DNA of 3,767 nt from Escherichia coli. GTDB taxonomy: Bacteria; Pseudomonadota; Gammaproteobacteria; Enterobacterales; Enterobacteriaceae. Each line of letters begins with the position of its first letter. Position 1 is the first letter of the stretch. Below are positions 1-3,767 of the stretch, piece after piece. The translations under genes were made by a program, and so were the position numbers. The DNA lies in the NCBI RefSeq assembly GCF_003334815.1, contig NZ_QOWO01000080.1; one strand, written 5' to 3'. The notes under the pieces are model-generated. The model saw nothing but the letters and a program-made list of their open reading frames with translations. It had not been told where the DNA came from and made no database searches.

Positions 1-38
1 GGGGTTCCGTGGGCATTTCTGCGATAACACACGCTAAG
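1..38. repeat. Terminal inverted repeat (tnpA-proximal end), 38 bp: GGGGTTCCGTGGGCATTTCTGCGATAACACACGCTAAG
   Basis: It has the outer GGGG and inner ACGCTAAG typical of Tn3-family 38-bp IRs (compare Tn3 GGGG...ACGTTAAG). The tnpA stop codon (minus-strand TAG, plus 34-36) sits inside the IR, as is usual for this family. Its reverse complement matches 3751-3767. Confidence 0.85.
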
Positions 39-3000
39 GAAAAGTGAAGTTCTTTGGATTGAAGCGATTAGTACGAAGTGGCCTGTATCGTTCAAGGGGA
101 TGGTCAATTTCGTTCCACAGGTAATCTCCAGTGAGCGAGATATGACCCCATGGTAGTGGTGATACACTGGACAAGAGCTCTTCCGGTATAATGATCCCCT
201 GGTTGCGAATGTAATCAACAGCCCGACTGAGATAGACCGTGTTCCACAGAATTATTGCATTAACAACAAGGTTGAGGCCCGATGCCCTGTGAGCCATTGT
301 CTCGGCAGCCCTGTTCCGGAATTCGCCCAGTTGGTGAAGAAAAATAGCGCGGGCAAGTGCATGGCGGCTTTCGCCTTTGTTGAGGATTGCGTGTGATCTG
401 CGACGTAACCGAGTGTCAAGCAACCAGTCACAGATAAAAATTGAGCGTTCAATACGTCCCATTTCACGCAGGGCCAGATTGAGCCTGTTTTGTCTCGGAG
501 ATGCTGCCAGCTTTTTCAGTATTACCGATGGTGGTACCAGACCAGCGCCGATCGAGGCCTTAAGCCGCAGAACTTCATCCCAGTGCTGTTCTATTACTTC
601 CATTTTGGCCTTTCCGGCGATCAGGGCATCAAGTGGTTTATATTCCTCTGAGGGTGAAATAACGTACAACCTGCGACTGCCGAGGTTGCGAATACGGGGT
701 ATGAGTCTGTAACCAAAAGAGTGAAACATTGAAAATGTTGTTTCAGTCGCACCGGCTGTATCGGTGGCATGCTCATGAATTACCACAGAACTTTCGTTAT
801 GAAGTAAGCCGTCAAGTACGTAGGGAGCCTCGCTTTCAGAGGCCTGAATCATTCTGGAAAAAAAGGATGCAAAACGGTTCGATAAAAAACCATAAATCGA
901 CGCGCCAGGTCGTTTGCCGTATTTGGCGTTATATTCGAGGCTGGCTTCTCCTCGTCCACCCGCAGGAAAAAACTGCCCGTCCGAGGATGACACATGCCCA
1001 TCCCCCCATATAGCAGCAAAAGGATGTTCCTGTTGCGCATCGACCAGAACTGATGTGGCAGACGCATAGGTTTCAGTGCGTAAATGACGATCCATCATTA
1101 CCATCATCTGGTGAATGGTGACACCCCGGGAACTCTGCGCCATCCGTTCTGCTCCCGCATTCGTCGCATCGGCAAGGATCGCAGCCATAAGTGCAGCTTC
1201 ATCTTCCGCCTGTTCCCCGGTGCGATAATGGGTGAAACAATCAAGAAAACTGGTCCAGCTATGAACTTCTGCCAGCAAACTGGTAATTCTGATGCGTGGT
1301 ACCAGCATGTAGAGTTTACGGCTGAGAGCCTTAATTTTGTCGCTCTCTTCTTCGCGAATCGGAGACACAGACAACCCTCTGCTGGAAAGTTCTGCATCGG
1401 GTATGGCATTCTCCGAAGCAGCTTTTGCCAGCGCTTTCAGTTTTGCGTTGAGTGTGGTGGTTCGCTCAGCCCGCCATTCAGCAAAGTTGTCCGGAATGGC
1501 AAGTCCCAGCCGGGATTCTGCCCGCATCTGCCCGAAAACATGGTGAGGAAGAAGGTAGTCCTCAAAACTACGCCAGGCCCGACTACCATCAACCCATATG
1601 TCACCTGTTTTCAGGCGTTCCCGCAAATGAACGAATACGGCGACTTCCCACGCCTGCAGATCGGTATTTTCTCCATGGATGACACGACGTCGCCATTTAT
1701 GGGACATAAAATCGAGCGGAATTTGTTTGGGTAATTTTCGGCCATGATAGAACGCCTGCAAATACCCAATCGCCAACAAAACGCTATCATCCGGGCGAAA
1801 AGCTCTGAAAGAAAAAGCGCTGAAAATGAGTCGTCCAAGCTTACGTAATGATTTTTGTCGTCCGATAAGTTCATCCAGTTCAGAACAGTGATGGGAAGAT
1901 GCCACCGAAGCTGCAGCCTCCATACTGGCAATCAAACCTTCCCAGCCGAGTGATGCTGTTATTACAGATTCAATATCAGTATTACCGTCACGTGCTGCCA
2001 GGAGAGCCCGTCCCAGCTTAATATGATCCTGAGCTACGACTTCAAGTACTTCAGCGGCTTTCAGACGACGCTCTTTCTGGCTTATCTCTGCTCTGCGCCT
2101 CGTGCTGCCAATCAATTTGCAGAACATATCAATTGCCAGATCTGTAATTGCTGCCTGCTTTTCAATAACAAAGGCTACCAGCGTGGCATGACGGCGTTCG
2201 GATGCCATTCGTTGTATTTCACGCGCATGTAAAACGCGAGAATCCCGGGCAATAATACCGTAACGGTTTACATGAATCCGTTTACGTTGCTCATCGGAGA
2301 TTGCCGCTGTTCGTAATACCTCCAGCCTGGCAATTAACCCCTTAAGATTCTTGAGTTTCACGCCTTCCGGCGCTTCAGCTATCCAGCCTAAAATGCTCTT
2401 TTCTCCGACTCGTTCGGTAAGCAACTGCTCGAGAGCGCTAATGGATGAAGGTTTCAGATCCCTGATGAGTTCCCGATAAGAAAGGCGACGGGCAGCCGCC
2501 CGGCCCGCCATTGCCAGACGGATGAGTTGTGCCGGAGCAGGGGCAAGTAACTTCTGGTCCTTCAGCTTATTGATAACTGCTCTGGTGATCGGCAGTCCTT
2601 TTTCGGTGGTTGCTGCTTCGCGTGTAGCCGCGATAATGAGCATTCTGTAATCGCTACTCCGGACGGAACGAAGCTCCAAAGCCGAAACTATTTCGCGGGC
2701 ATGTTCCCGGCGGGTTTCCTCACGTTGTGCGTAAAGTGTAAAAACAGCAGGGTCAATATCCAGTTGTTCCGCAACAACGGTGATAACAGCCTCCGGGGGA
2801 ATCTCTCCTGCACGCAGTGTACGACCGAGATCACGGACAAGTGCAAGCTGAATGGCAAAACCCAGACGGTTATGAGATCGACGATGAGTTCTGGCGAATG
2901 CAATATCCTCGCAGGAGAGCGAAAACCGGGGAAGTGCATCCTCATAAAGTTCAGGTAATCCAAAAAGCGTATCGTACGATTTAGCGTCGAGAAATGACAT
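34..3000 (-). CDS. tnpA: Tn3-family DDE transposase TnpA, 988 aa
   Basis: A single uninterrupted 2967-nt ORF ending inside the terminal IR. The N-terminus carries the NRLGFAIQL motif typical of Tn3-family TnpA. Candidate DDE triad: D674 (SSSDGQ, nt 979-981), D747 (HEHATDTAG, nt 760-762), E877 (NKGES, nt 370-372), with spacing 73/130 aa close to what I recall for Tn4430 TnpA. The ATG at 3000-2998 overlaps the tnpR 3' end. Confidence 0.95.
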   Translation of the reverse strand: MSFLDAKSYDTLFGLPELYEDALPRFSLSCEDIAFARTHRRSHNRLGFAIQLALVRDLGRTLRAGEIPPEAVITVVAEQLDIDPAVFTLYAQREETRREHAREIVSALELRSVRSSDYRMLIIAATREAATTEKGLPITRAVINKLKDQKLLAPAPAQLIRLAMAGRAAARRLSYRELIRDLKPSSISALEQLLTERVGEKSILGWIAEAPEGVKLKNLKGLIARLEVLRTAAISDEQRKRIHVNRYGIIARDSRVLHAREIQRMASERRHATLVAFVIEKQAAITDLAIDMFCKLIGSTRRRAEISQKERRLKAAEVLEVVAQDHIKLGRALLAARDGNTDIESVITASLGWEGLIASMEAAASVASSHHCSELDELIGRQKSLRKLGRLIFSAFSFRAFRPDDSVLLAIGYLQAFYHGRKLPKQIPLDFMSHKWRRRVIHGENTDLQAWEVAVFVHLRERLKTGDIWVDGSRAWRSFEDYLLPHHVFGQMRAESRLGLAIPDNFAEWRAERTTTLNAKLKALAKAASENAIPDAELSSRGLSVSPIREEESDKIKALSRKLYMLVPRIRITSLLAEVHSWTSFLDCFTHYRTGEQAEDEAALMAAILADATNAGAERMAQSSRGVTIHQMMVMMDRHLRTETYASATSVLVDAQQEHPFAAIWGDGHVSSSDGQFFPAGGRGEASLEYNAKYGKRPGASIYGFLSNRFASFFSRMIQASESEAPYVLDGLLHNESSVVIHEHATDTAGATETTFSMFHSFGYRLIPRIRNLGSRRLYVISPSEEYKPLDALIAGKAKMEVIEQHWDEVLRLKASIGAGLVPPSVILKKLAASPRQNRLNLALREMGRIERSIFICDWLLDTRLRRRSHAILNKGESRHALARAIFLHQLGEFRNRAAETMAHRASGLNLVVNAIILWNTVYLSRAVDYIRNQGIIIPEELLSSVSPLPWGHISLTGDYLWNEIDHPLERYRPLRTNRFNPKNFTFP

Positions 3001-3604
3001 TGCTCTGATCCGTTGTCAGATTACGCCCCCCAGGTCCGGCCCAGCCAATTCGTCGTAGAGTATCGGTGAGCGTTGAGCGTGGCACACTGAATGCGCGACA
3101 TACTGACGCTTTACTGGCACCTCCTTCCAGAGCTGCGAGGATTTGATCAACCTTTTCAGCATCTATCGCCGGTGGCCTTCCGCCTTTTCTCCCCCGCCGG
3201 AGAGCAGCAGCCAGACCAGCATTAACGCGTTCTGTGATAAGTGTTCTTTCGTACTCCGCGAGCGTGCCAAAAAGGTTAAAGAGGAACGAGCCGTGTGGCG
3301 TTGTTGTATCAATAGATTCAGTCAATGATCGGAAAGCAATACCACGAATTTTCAGGTCTTCAATAATTCGGAGCAAATGTGAGAGTGAACGACCAAGTCG
3401 ATCCAGTTTCCAGACTATCAGTACATCACCTTCGCGAAGTTCAGCGAGACAGGACTTAAGTCCCGGGCGATTATCACGAGCACCTGAAGCATGATCCTGA
3501 TGTAAATGCCGGGGATCCACTCCAGCAGCAATCAACGCATCACGCTGCAAAGAAACTGACTGACGTTCATCATTGCTTGATACCCGCATATAACCAATCA
3601 ACAT
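2981..3604 (-). CDS. tnpR: Serine recombinase (transposon resolvase TnpR) of the Gin/Hin/Pin invertase-like type, 207 aa from the ATG at 3604. The ORF track extends to a TTG at 3613, which is probably an overcall.
   Basis: The N-terminus MLIGYMRVSSND...LQRDAL closely matches Gin (MLIGYVRVSTNDQ...LQRNAL), placing the catalytic Ser at residue 9 (nt 3580-3578). Conserved blocks VWKLDRLGRS, FRSLTESIDTT and ERV-AGLAAA-RGR-GGRP are present, followed by a C-terminal HTH (RSTLTDTLRR). An AAGG Shine-Dalgarno sits about 10 nt upstream of the ATG at 3604. The stop is TAA at 2983-2981. Confidence 0.9.
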   Translation of the reverse strand: MLIGYMRVSSNDERQSVSLQRDALIAAGVDPRHLHQDHASGARDNRPGLKSCLAELREGDVLIVWKLDRLGRSLSHLLRIIEDLKIRGIAFRSLTESIDTTTPHGSFLFNLFGTLAEYERTLITERVNAGLAAALRRGRKGGRPPAIDAEKVDQILAALEGGASKASVCRAFSVPRSTLTDTLRRIGWAGPGGRNLTTDQSNVISRR

Positions 3605-3750
3605 GTACGACAAACCTTAAAATTGAAGTTTCCGTACAGTTTCTCATTCCGACAGGGTTTGTCACGCAAAAAATCACAGATTTATGGATTCAATTTTCTT
3701 CAACTGCAGGACCTGACGGAAAACAAGTGATTTCCGTCAGGGAGAAATCG
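3605..3750. promoter_or_regulatory. Putative res (resolution) site with embedded tnpR promoter/operator
   Basis: A ~146-bp non-coding region lies between the tnpR start and the right IR, where res sits in Tn21-type elements. It contains a perfect dyad at 3713-3740 and repeated TTCCG(N)CAG half-site-like motifs at 3630-3638 and 3649-3657. No clear sigma70 -35/-10 pair could be assigned. Confidence 0.55.
3713..3740. repeat. Perfect 28-bp dyad CTGACGGAAA-acaagtga-TTTCCGTCAG; candidate res subsite I (crossover site)
   Basis: 10-bp perfect inverted arms flank an 8-bp spacer. The 28-bp length equals a typical serine-resolvase site I. It lies at the tnpR-distal end of the res region, where site I sits in Tn21-type res. 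Confidence 0.5.
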
Positions 3751-3767
3751 CTTAGCGGGTGTTATCG
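3751..3767. repeat. Terminal inverted repeat (res-proximal end), truncated by the window; the inner 17 bp are visible
   Basis: The reverse complement of 3751-3767 is CGATAACACCCGCTAAG, against IR positions 22-38 CGATAACACACGCTAAG (16/17 identical). Orientation and position are right for the opposite transposon end. Confidence 0.8.

Follow-up and report, generated by a model that had tools for sequence, protein, structure and literature searches.

The 20-nt tnpR-tnpA overlap of an enterobacterial Tn3-family transposon: an ordinary, lineage-specific and apparently passive feature

Introduction

When the genes for resolvase and transposase overlap in a Tn3-family transposon, is the overlap a device that couples their translation, or a passive by-product of sequence change? 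The question is raised by a 3,767-nt stretch of Escherichia coli DNA (hereafter the window), in which tnpR and tnpA, both on the minus strand, share 20 nt. The initial annotation had read this arrangement as a sign of translational coupling, by which transposase levels would be linked to resolvase autorepression. Our analysis favors a different account, to which we assign a probability of about 0.7: the overlap would be a passive by-product, and tnpA the weakly translated second cistron of a res-promoted transcript.

The element and its genes

The window holds a minimal Tn3-family transposon with the layout inverted repeat (IR), res, tnpR, tnpA, IR and a full length of 3,788 bp, 21 bp of which are missing at the window's right end. 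The left terminal IR (GGGG...ACGCTAAG) spans 38 bp (positions 1..38), and the first 17 of the 38 bp of the right one lie at 3751..3767; in a full-length copy (L001) the two 38-nt arms are 95% complementary and separated by 3,712 nt. At least 80% of the window is spanned by 62 database records, with near-identical copies across many plasmids, and perfect 5-bp target duplications flank two independent insertions (aacat/aacat in L059 and tatct/tatct in L060). Judged from its spread over many plasmids and from these duplications, the element is evidently active with the present tnpR-tnpA arrangement. IncF/ColV and small plasmids of E. coli and Salmonella carry it very commonly; our literature search found no published name for it, and the cluster names are generic.

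The order res-tnpR-tnpA is conserved. Upstream of the genes, a palindrome (CCTGACGGAAAACA / TGATTTCCGTCAGG, positions 3712..3741) whose core is conserved across the clade is the putative res site I, that is, the crossover site. A second conserved block precedes tnpR on the minus strand (3605..3675) and would correspond to res subsites II/III; it carries GACAAACC/GGTTTGTC half-sites and overlaps the tnpR ribosome-binding site (AAGG). Overlapping it as well, the sequence GTGACA-16 nt-(TG)nGAAACT might serve as a promoter, as which it is a poor, weak candidate.

The tnpR gene (2981..3604, minus strand) encodes a serine recombinase/resolvase of 207 aa, with the Pfam Resolvase domain at residues 3-139 and HTH_7 at 142-179. 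In the clade alignment the motif IGW(A/T)GPG is conserved, up to residue ~192, and the protein ends in a tail of 15 residues (3028-2984) that shows no conservation. This tail lies beyond the region covered by PDB homologues, which align with TnpR only to residues 179-181. Among solved structures, Gin invertase (E 6e-50) is a closer match for TnpR than the gamma-delta/Tn3 resolvases are (E 1e-24 to 1e-26). ISXc5-type resolvases are reportedly 'invertase-like' and bear a C-terminal extension; TnpR may be of a similar kind, with its invertase-like catalytic domain and an extension of ~20 aa past the HTH, a resemblance that we offer as a lead.

The tnpA gene (34..3000, minus strand) encodes a DDE transposase of the Tn3 family, 988 aa long, whose N-terminus is conserved from Met1. 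Residues 26-963 match the NCBIfam model NF033527 (transpos_Tn3) with a score of 922 bits, where the cut-off is 500, and the stop codon (TAG, 36-34) lies inside the left IR.

The junction is correctly annotated

The overlap runs over 2981..3000 on the minus strand, from the tnpA ATG (3000-2998) to the tnpR TAA (2983-2981). Read on that strand, the tnpR frame is CAG AGC AAT GTC ATT TCT CGA CGC TAA, while the tnpA frame, at +1 relative to tnpR, is ATG TCA TTT CTC GAC GCT AAA. The open reading frames listed for the window are 34..3000 and 2981..3613, and RefSeq/PGAP places the tnpR start at ATG 3604 and annotates both coding sequences and their 20-nt overlap identically in independent plasmids. 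Sequence and RefSeq thus agree with the initial description of a 20-nt overlap between two different frames.

The start of tnpA is unambiguous, because a TGA (3018-3016) closes its frame upstream, with five non-start codons between it and the ATG, and because ATG, GTG and TTG are all absent from the first ~30 tnpA codons after the start. The homologous ATG, within an M-[S/A]-F-L-D N-terminus, is kept in ~30 related elements (GTG in one); M1, F3, L4 and D5 of TnpA are invariant among five aligned clade members, and Met1 aligns with the N-termini of Tn21/Tn1721-type TnpA. Since the start is conserved among relatives and aligned with these transposases, the alternative of a true start further downstream fails: all full-length relatives examined start at the homologous codon, where the initial annotation had placed the start.

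A mistaken tnpA start or tnpR end would make the overlap an artefact, and a programmed frameshift would make it the site of a TnpR-TnpA fusion. Both are bare geometric possibilities of the layout, to which we give a negligible chance. The tnpA frame is closed five codons upstream and offers no other start in the vicinity, the start is conserved, and the junction sequence is identical in hundreds of records. Fusion by frameshift or readthrough, in turn, requires a +1 shift; sequence inspection of positions 2981-3018 revealed no slippery X XXY YYZ or prfB-like (stall) motif, and the relation between the two frames varies among relatives, which have gaps of 14, 15, 16 or 18 nt. The slippery motif and the frame reachable by -1 slippage that characterize IS1/IS3-like programmed frameshifting are likewise lacking. 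The annotation is therefore correct for both the start of tnpA and the end of tnpR. A same-strand overlap of 20 nt is statistically unremarkable; according to a review (PMC12548453), the shared stretch is shorter than 30 bp in more than 80% of the prokaryotic gene pairs that overlap.

The overlap is confined to an enterobacterial lineage

We compared the spacing from the tnpR stop to the tnpA start, in nt, with negative values for overlaps and positive values for gaps. A spacing of -20 occurs in the window element and in a 97.8% variant, and one of -14 in relatives from Enterobacter bugandensis (L003) and Xenorhabdus (L007, L008). In ~25 relatives, mostly alphaproteobacterial, the spacing is +14 to +18; one distant relative (L036) has +67, and the TnAs1/Tn1721 and TnAs3/Tn21 types have +3 and +2, respectively. 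The comparison with homologues proposed in the initial annotation therefore gives a split answer, with the position of the tnpA start conserved and the overlap not.

All ~30 clade members start tnpA within ~20 nt of the tnpR stop, despite a fast-evolving tail. Such steady spacing could reflect selection for coupling, in which case the overlap is perhaps not entirely neutral.

How the overlap arose can be traced in the aligned junctions. The TGA at 3016..3018 (minus strand), located at -18..-16 from the tnpA ATG, is the tnpR stop in relatives of the L004 type, which have a 15-nt gap, and other relatives stop 1-3 nt from there. The alignment and the junction comparison show this TGA kept in the window element, out of the tnpR frame, and the aligned DNA of the tnpR tail has a 17-column gap, the enterobacterial lineage being a net 17 nt shorter. 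Mechanistically, this lineage would have lost a net 17 nt from the non-conserved tail; tnpR, which no longer reads the ancestral stop (3018-3016) in frame, would therefore extend into tnpA up to the first stop of the new frame. A second position explains the two overlap lengths. The tnpR codon at 2987..2989 (minus strand) is CGA (Arg) in the window, where the Enterobacter and Xenorhabdus relatives have a TGA stop; their overlap is 14 nt because this TGA is intact. The two versions differ by C or T at 2989, which in tnpA is the third base of Leu4 (CTC vs CTT) and hence silent. Differences within the overlap leave the tnpA product unaltered, and in tnpR they are non-synonymous or change a stop. 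A CTT to CTC change, silent in tnpA, would thus have turned the tnpR TGA into CGA, moving the stop by 6 nt and lengthening the overlap from 14 to 20 nt.

From these alignments, the overlap seems to be specific to one lineage and to have followed from a deletion that shifted the frame of the tnpR tail, a derived accident rather than a conserved device. The polarity of the indel, an enterobacterial deletion and not an insertion in the sister clade, would follow from parsimony, the outgroup junctions being not alignable. At the level of sequence, what the clade conserves is an SD-poor tnpA start codon close to the end of tnpR, and not the overlap itself.

Transcription of tnpA

Conserved gene order, together with the lack of a terminator or internal promoter signal, makes it quite likely that tnpA is co-transcribed with tnpR. 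No terminator-like site was found at the junction, nor any sigma-70-like site on the minus strand at the standard scan threshold. A promoter of its own in the 3' part of tnpR would render tnpA independent of both the res promoter and autorepression by TnpR. However, a relaxed scan inside tnpR (at least 8/12) returned 0 matches vs 1.7 expected in shuffles, and synonymous-codon entropy along tnpR in 21 distinct homologues (range 0.83-1.40, mean 1.09) showed no depressed window, that is, no suppressed variation marking an embedded element. The silence of the promoter scans inside tnpR carries little weight, since the same scans also missed any convincing tnpR promoter in res, and this blind spot is what speaks for an internal promoter; overall, we consider one quite improbable. 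In the favored account, tnpA most likely follows tnpR as second cistron on a transcript that is promoted from res and autorepressed by TnpR, where both the autorepression and the mode of tnpA translation are what we infer. The initial proposal that the overlap ties transposase to resolvase autorepression is thereby half sustained: co-transcription is plausible, and the overlap is not needed for the tie, because operon transcription alone would provide it.

Translation of tnpA

The only Shine-Dalgarno-like elements before tnpA are a GGA (3011-3009) and a GAG (3005-3003), within 3003..3011 on the minus strand and inside tnpR. The best anti-SD duplex (-3.3 kcal/mol) is no better than background, since 40% of the 20-mers drawn at other places in the element equal or surpass it, in line with the weak signal noted initially. 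We found no RNA fold that would mask the ribosome-binding site at the junction (MFE -28.1 vs a shuffle mean of -31.2 kcal/mol, z = +0.83); the tnpA start codon is predicted to be unpaired, and an Rfam search of the junction matched no family. We propose that this unstructured, SD-poor start supports a low level of tnpA translation. Ribosomes that have finished tnpR may supply part of it by weak termination-reinitiation, with a small share expected at a spacing of -20.

A stronger role for the overlap would be that of a functional device, in which tnpA would lack a usable ribosome-binding site of its own and be served mainly by ribosomes that, having ended at the tnpR TAA, move back 17-20 nt to re-initiate; TnpA would then track TnpR translation. 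Consistent with it are the background-level SD, a start always within ~20 nt of the tnpR stop in the clade, the absence of internal promoter and terminator signals, and the fact that the element transposes with its present geometry. Re-initiation in the backward direction is also documented, in RNA-phage coat-lysis pairs coupled at -38 and -50 nt (PMC12548453), and because of these pairs a spacing of -20 nt is compatible with coupling. On the other hand, in a systematic E. coli series the efficiency of coupling falls more steeply with overlap than with gap and is nil at -25 nt (PMC12548453; distance dependence is also treated in PMC10666635), and -20 nt lies outside the efficient range (-4 to +3 nt). 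Moreover, the overlap is unconserved, being restricted to the enterobacterial subclade and of variable length even there; it appears to have arisen by a frameshift and a stop loss silent in tnpA; and there is no masking structure for tnpR translation to open. The overlap as a coupling device is accordingly not borne out, and we regard it as unlikely. That tnpA translation depends measurably (at least 2-fold) on tnpR translation is a separate matter, which we rate at somewhat less than even odds. Our literature search found no paper on translational coupling of resolvase and transposase in Tn3 elements.

Alternatively, tnpA could be translated independently, by de novo initiation at its SD-poor ATG, or be occluded by ribosomes translating tnpR, in which case high tnpR translation would lower TnpA. 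This is a tentative possibility, less likely than not. The start codon is unpaired in a region less structured than shuffled controls, and only weak coupling is expected at -20; by inferred geometry, a ribosome terminating at the TAA has the ATG 14 nt upstream of its P-site codon, approximately at the trailing edge of its footprint. De novo initiation without an SD is, however, inefficient. Low TnpA is what transposons generally need.

Selection of the overlap for coupling appears very unlikely to us. Less probable still is that the shift from a +15 gap to a -14/-20 overlap was selected in Enterobacterales to retune transposase output. If it were so, the ATG would sit at the trailing edge of the ribosome terminating on tnpR and TnpA would stem from rare backward re-initiation, giving a very low TnpA:TnpR ratio tied to tnpR translation, a regulatory variant undescribed for Tn3-family elements.

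Comparison with known systems

The relatives from Enterobacter bugandensis and Xenorhabdus (87-89% protein identity) share the frameshifted tnpR tail and an overlap, of 14 nt. Unnamed sister elements lie on plasmids of Rhizobium, Agrobacterium and other alphaproteobacteria (for example NZ_CP032406.1; WP_072495413.1 / WP_055971942.1), with TnpA 73-76% and TnpR 82-85% identical. In common with the window element they have the res blocks and, in tnpA, both the ATG and an N-terminus of the form M-[S/A]-F-L-D, but their tnpR ends 14-18 nt before the ATG, without overlap, and has 9-10 unrelated residues after GPG.

Among named systems, the Tn21/Tn1721-type modules (TnAs3 and TnAs1 copies) have the gene order and orientation seen here, a TnpA of 988 aa that aligns from Met1, a tnpA start with a weak SD adjoining the tnpR stop, 38-bp IRs ending in ACGCTAAG and 5-bp target duplications. 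They differ from the window element in the spacing itself (+2 or +3 nt vs -20), in TnpA sequence (~30-32% identity over the N-terminal 300 aa) and in TnpR, which has 186 aa in these modules vs 207 aa here, with an extra tail of ~20 aa, at 35-36% identity.

The textbook coupled pairs trpE-trpD (-1) and galT-galK (+3) and the RNA-phage coat-lysis pairs (-38/-50) resemble the present one in being neighboring same-strand cistrons whose second start lies near the first stop, with a weak downstream ribosome-binding site. Coupled pairs have their efficient range at short distances, in contrast to -20 here, and the phage pairs with long overlaps rely in part on RNA unfolding, whereas no such fold is predicted at this junction.

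Seen against these systems, the overlap is short, ordinary and specific to one lineage. It appears to be passive, in an operon layout that is well known, and has little significance beyond annotation. The restraint of its transposase is of some practical interest, because the element is very common and evidently active. For translational coupling in colinear Tn3-family modules, Tn21 (+2) and Tn1721 (+3) would be better targets than the -20 case.

The tnpR/tnpA junction

Both genes lie on the minus strand: tnpR (3604..2981) encodes a 207-aa serine recombinase with a Resolvase domain (residues 3-139) and an HTH_7 domain (residues 142-179), and tnpA (3000..34) encodes a 988-aa Tn3-family transposase (NCBIfam NF033527, 922 bits; cut-off 500). 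The 20-nt overlap proposed in the initial annotation (2981-3000, minus strand), which runs from the tnpA ATG (3000-2998) to the tnpR TAA (2983-2981), is confirmed by both reading frames. The tnpR frame ends ...AAT CTG ACA ACG GAT CAG AGC AAT GTC ATT TCT CGA CGC TAA, and tnpA, in the +1 frame relative to tnpR, reads TGA CAA CGG ATC AGA GCA ATG TCA TTT CTC GAC GCT AAA. The overlap is already public: in several plasmids RefSeq/PGAP annotates these two CDS with an identical overlap.

Upstream, the tnpA frame is closed by a TGA (3018-3016) followed by 5 non-start codons before the ATG, while the first 30 codons downstream contain no ATG, GTG or TTG, which leaves ATG 3000 as the sole candidate start. 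Shine-Dalgarno-like GGA (3011-3009) and GAG (3005-3003) precede it. The signal had been called weak, and indeed the best anti-Shine-Dalgarno duplex (-3.3 kcal/mol) is at background level: among 20-mers sampled within this element, 40% equal or better it. The 9-mer ACGGATCAG (3005-3013, minus strand), 4 nt before the tnpA ATG, also forms the final three sense codons (T-D-Q) of a Tn21-type tnpR (locus L055, 1475-1483), where it lies 5 nt before tnpA; this match is probably coincidental, since the closest relatives carry GCGGACCAG or GTGGGCCAG in its place.

Conservation of the tnpA start and variation of the overlap

The relatives came from plasmids and from a set with a single genome for each species, which gave 47 loci. 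In every full-length clade relative tnpA starts at the homologous position (all ATG save one GTG) rather than at a downstream codon, in support of ATG 3000. The TnpA N-terminus, M-[S/A]-F-L-D, has M1, F3, L4 and D5 invariant among five aligned clade members, and aligns, to within three residues, with the N-termini annotated for the Tn21-type (TnAs3) and Tn1721-type (TnAs1) transposases.

The overlap, on the other hand, is not conserved among homologous elements. Counting overlaps as negative, the spacing is -20 nt in the window element and a 97.8% variant, -14 nt in Enterobacter bugandensis, Xenorhabdus koppenhoeferi and X. vietnamensis (the Xenorhabdus value from tail inspection), +14 to +18 nt in about 25 relatives with a 66-76% identical TnpA N-terminus (Rhizobium, Agrobacterium, Brucella, Mesorhizobium, Pseudomonas putida and others), +67 nt in the distant relative L036, +3 nt in the Tn1721-type module and +2 nt in the Tn21-type module. 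Tn21 has the same colinear organisation as the window module, yet is distant in sequence; in the Tn21 and Tn1721 types the TnpA N-terminus is 30-32% and TnpR 35-36% identical to the window element.

In relatives with a 15-nt gap (L004, L009-L016, L028) or an 18-nt gap (L027), tnpR and tnpA share one reading frame, with just a single stop codon and 5-6 sense codons between them, and stop readthrough would therefore yield a TnpR-TnpA fusion. The shared frame is probably fortuitous, because the frame relation is not conserved (14- and 16-nt gaps also occur).

Probable origin of the overlap in the tnpR tail

The distance from the conserved IGW(T/A)GPG motif to the ATG is 28 nt in the enterobacterial elements versus 45 nt in the closest alphaproteobacterial ones, a net 17-nt difference in the tnpR tail, seen in the alignment as a gap of 17 columns. 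In relatives with a 15-nt gap, such as L004, the tnpR stop (TGA or TAA) occupies -18..-16 from the ATG, and in other relatives it falls within 1-3 nt of this position. The corresponding TGA (3018-3016) is kept in the window element, but tnpR reads AAT CTG ACA across it, in another frame, and runs on into tnpA.

A second step separates the -20 and -14 spacings. In the -14 relatives tnpR ends GAT GTC CTT TCT TGA; position 2989 is C in the window element versus T in these relatives, a change that is silent in tnpA (Leu4, CTT to CTC) and turns TGA into CGA in tnpR, which therefore extends two codons more, to TAA. The remaining overlap differences are likewise silent in tnpA (TCA/TCC) and residue-changing in tnpR (N/D, I/L).

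Alignment with solved resolvases and invertases ends at TnpR residues 179-181. The post-GPG tail lies beyond, and is unrelated between lineages (GRNLTTDQSNVISRR, SCNLKADQADVLS, KEDEPAPPV, KTGTPETVV, KKDSPDTSH). On the simplest reading the tail would be dispensable, a frameshifting deletion would have been tolerated and the new stop would have drifted in position. The overlap is an ordinary short unidirectional one, of the type produced by stop-codon loss or shift. Most parsimoniously it would be a derived state, since no overlap occurs in the sister clade, in the distant relative or in the Tn21 and Tn1721 types; the polarity comes from parsimony only.

Among solved structures, the window TnpR (2984-3604, minus strand) matches the Gin invertase (4m6f/3uj3; N-terminus MLIGY.RVS) at E about 6e-50, with gamma-delta/Tn3 resolvase more distant (E 1e-24 to 1e-26). 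It is also extended at the C-terminus by about 20 aa, a combination that may recall the invertase-like ISXc5 resolvase subfamily.

Transcription of tnpR and tnpA

The core of a palindrome at 3712-3741 is conserved across the clade, followed by about 45 variable nt and a strongly conserved block reaching the tnpR start (res-like region 3605-3741). This block, TTTTTTGCGYGACAAACCCTGTCGGA...CTGTRCGRCAA...GGTTTGTCGYACATG, overlaps the tnpR ribosome-binding site and start; palindrome and block together resemble a res site. No good sigma-70 promoter could be made out in the res-like region, the best candidate for tnpR being GTGACA-16 nt-(TG)nGAAACT within the conserved block. ORF calling places the tnpR start at an upstream in-frame TTG (3613-3611, minus strand; 210 aa), but the annotated, conserved ATG 3604, with AAGG 10 nt upstream, is more likely; across the clade this start reads ATGTTG in all sequences but one (ATGCTG).

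The junction has no terminator-like site and the minus strand no sigma-70-like site, and a relaxed scan inside tnpR returned 0 promoter-like pairs versus 1.7 expected in shuffles. These promoter results carry little weight, as the scans recognise none for tnpR in res either. Rfam gave no match in the window. The 140-nt RNA around the tnpA start folds no better than shuffles (-28.1 versus -31.2 kcal/mol, z = +0.83), with the tnpA ATG unpaired in the MFE structure, and no window of depressed synonymous-codon entropy occurs along tnpR among 21 distinct homologues (range 0.83-1.40, mean 1.09).

Given the res-tnpR-tnpA order, the conserved proximity of the genes and the absence of any signal between them, a bicistronic tnpR-tnpA transcript from a promoter embedded in res is most likely. 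In Tn3, the promoters are part of res, and bound TnpR represses both genes (PMC7157771); by analogy, the operon arrangement would by itself link tnpA to TnpR autorepression through transcription.

Possible translational coupling

Coupling is optimal from -4 to +3 nt, a longer overlap costing more than an equal gap, and in a systematic E. coli series it declines with distance between -4 and -25 nt and is absent at -25 (PMC12548453); termination-reinitiation is nearly abolished by gaps of about +20 nt (PMC10666635). RNA-phage coat-lysis pairs re-initiate backward at -38 and -50 nt (PMC12548453), and -20 is therefore compatible with coupling. From these published distances we would expect low-level tnpA translation from an unstructured, Shine-Dalgarno-poor start, with ribosomes terminating on tnpR contributing modestly at most. 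The P site of a ribosome terminating at the TAA is 2986-2984, with the tnpA ATG 14 nt upstream and presumably near the trailing edge of the footprint, a geometry that would be compatible with weak re-initiation in the backward direction or with de novo initiation being occluded.

We thus predict weak tnpR-tnpA coupling. The reading in the initial annotation is borne out in part, for the tnpA start, the weak Shine-Dalgarno and the likely operon, but the overlap is neither conserved nor evidently selected as a coupling feature. Our search, with most of the 1980s literature outside its reach, found no paper on tnpR-tnpA translational coupling in Tn3-family elements.

The element and its spread

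The full element comprises 3,788 bp with 38-bp inverted repeats (GGGGTTCCGTGGGCATTTCTGCGATAACACACGCTAAG), and the window holds all except the last 21 bp: the left repeat is complete (1-38), with the tnpA TAG stop (36-34) inside it, and the right one partial (3751-3767). At locus L001 the element spans 2501-6288, its repeat arms complementary at 36/38 positions. Neither the literature nor protein cluster names gave a name for it.

Copies 99.8-99.9% identical occur on many plasmids of Escherichia, Salmonella and other enterobacteria; at least 80% of the window is covered in 62 records, and the exact TnpR sequence is found on at least 1,000 contigs. Two independent insertions show perfect 5-bp target duplications, aacat in a ColE1-type and tatct in an IncP-like plasmid. 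Given these duplications and the near-identical copies, the element is an active, minimal Tn3-family transposon.

In one strain set, the E. coli UTME plasmids (NZ_CP157091-CP157112), many different plasmids carry full-length copies, small ColE1-type ones of 8-16 kb included, which suggests recent transposition bursts. The common 206-aa TnpR variants P0003 and P0007, of the window TnpR's cluster, diverge after residue ~183 into ...GGSLDIENYCTVSLFFEQIYLSR, a tail that looks like an element copy truncated by insertion. IS26 adjoins one element copy, and the annotated tnpR is intact in that record.
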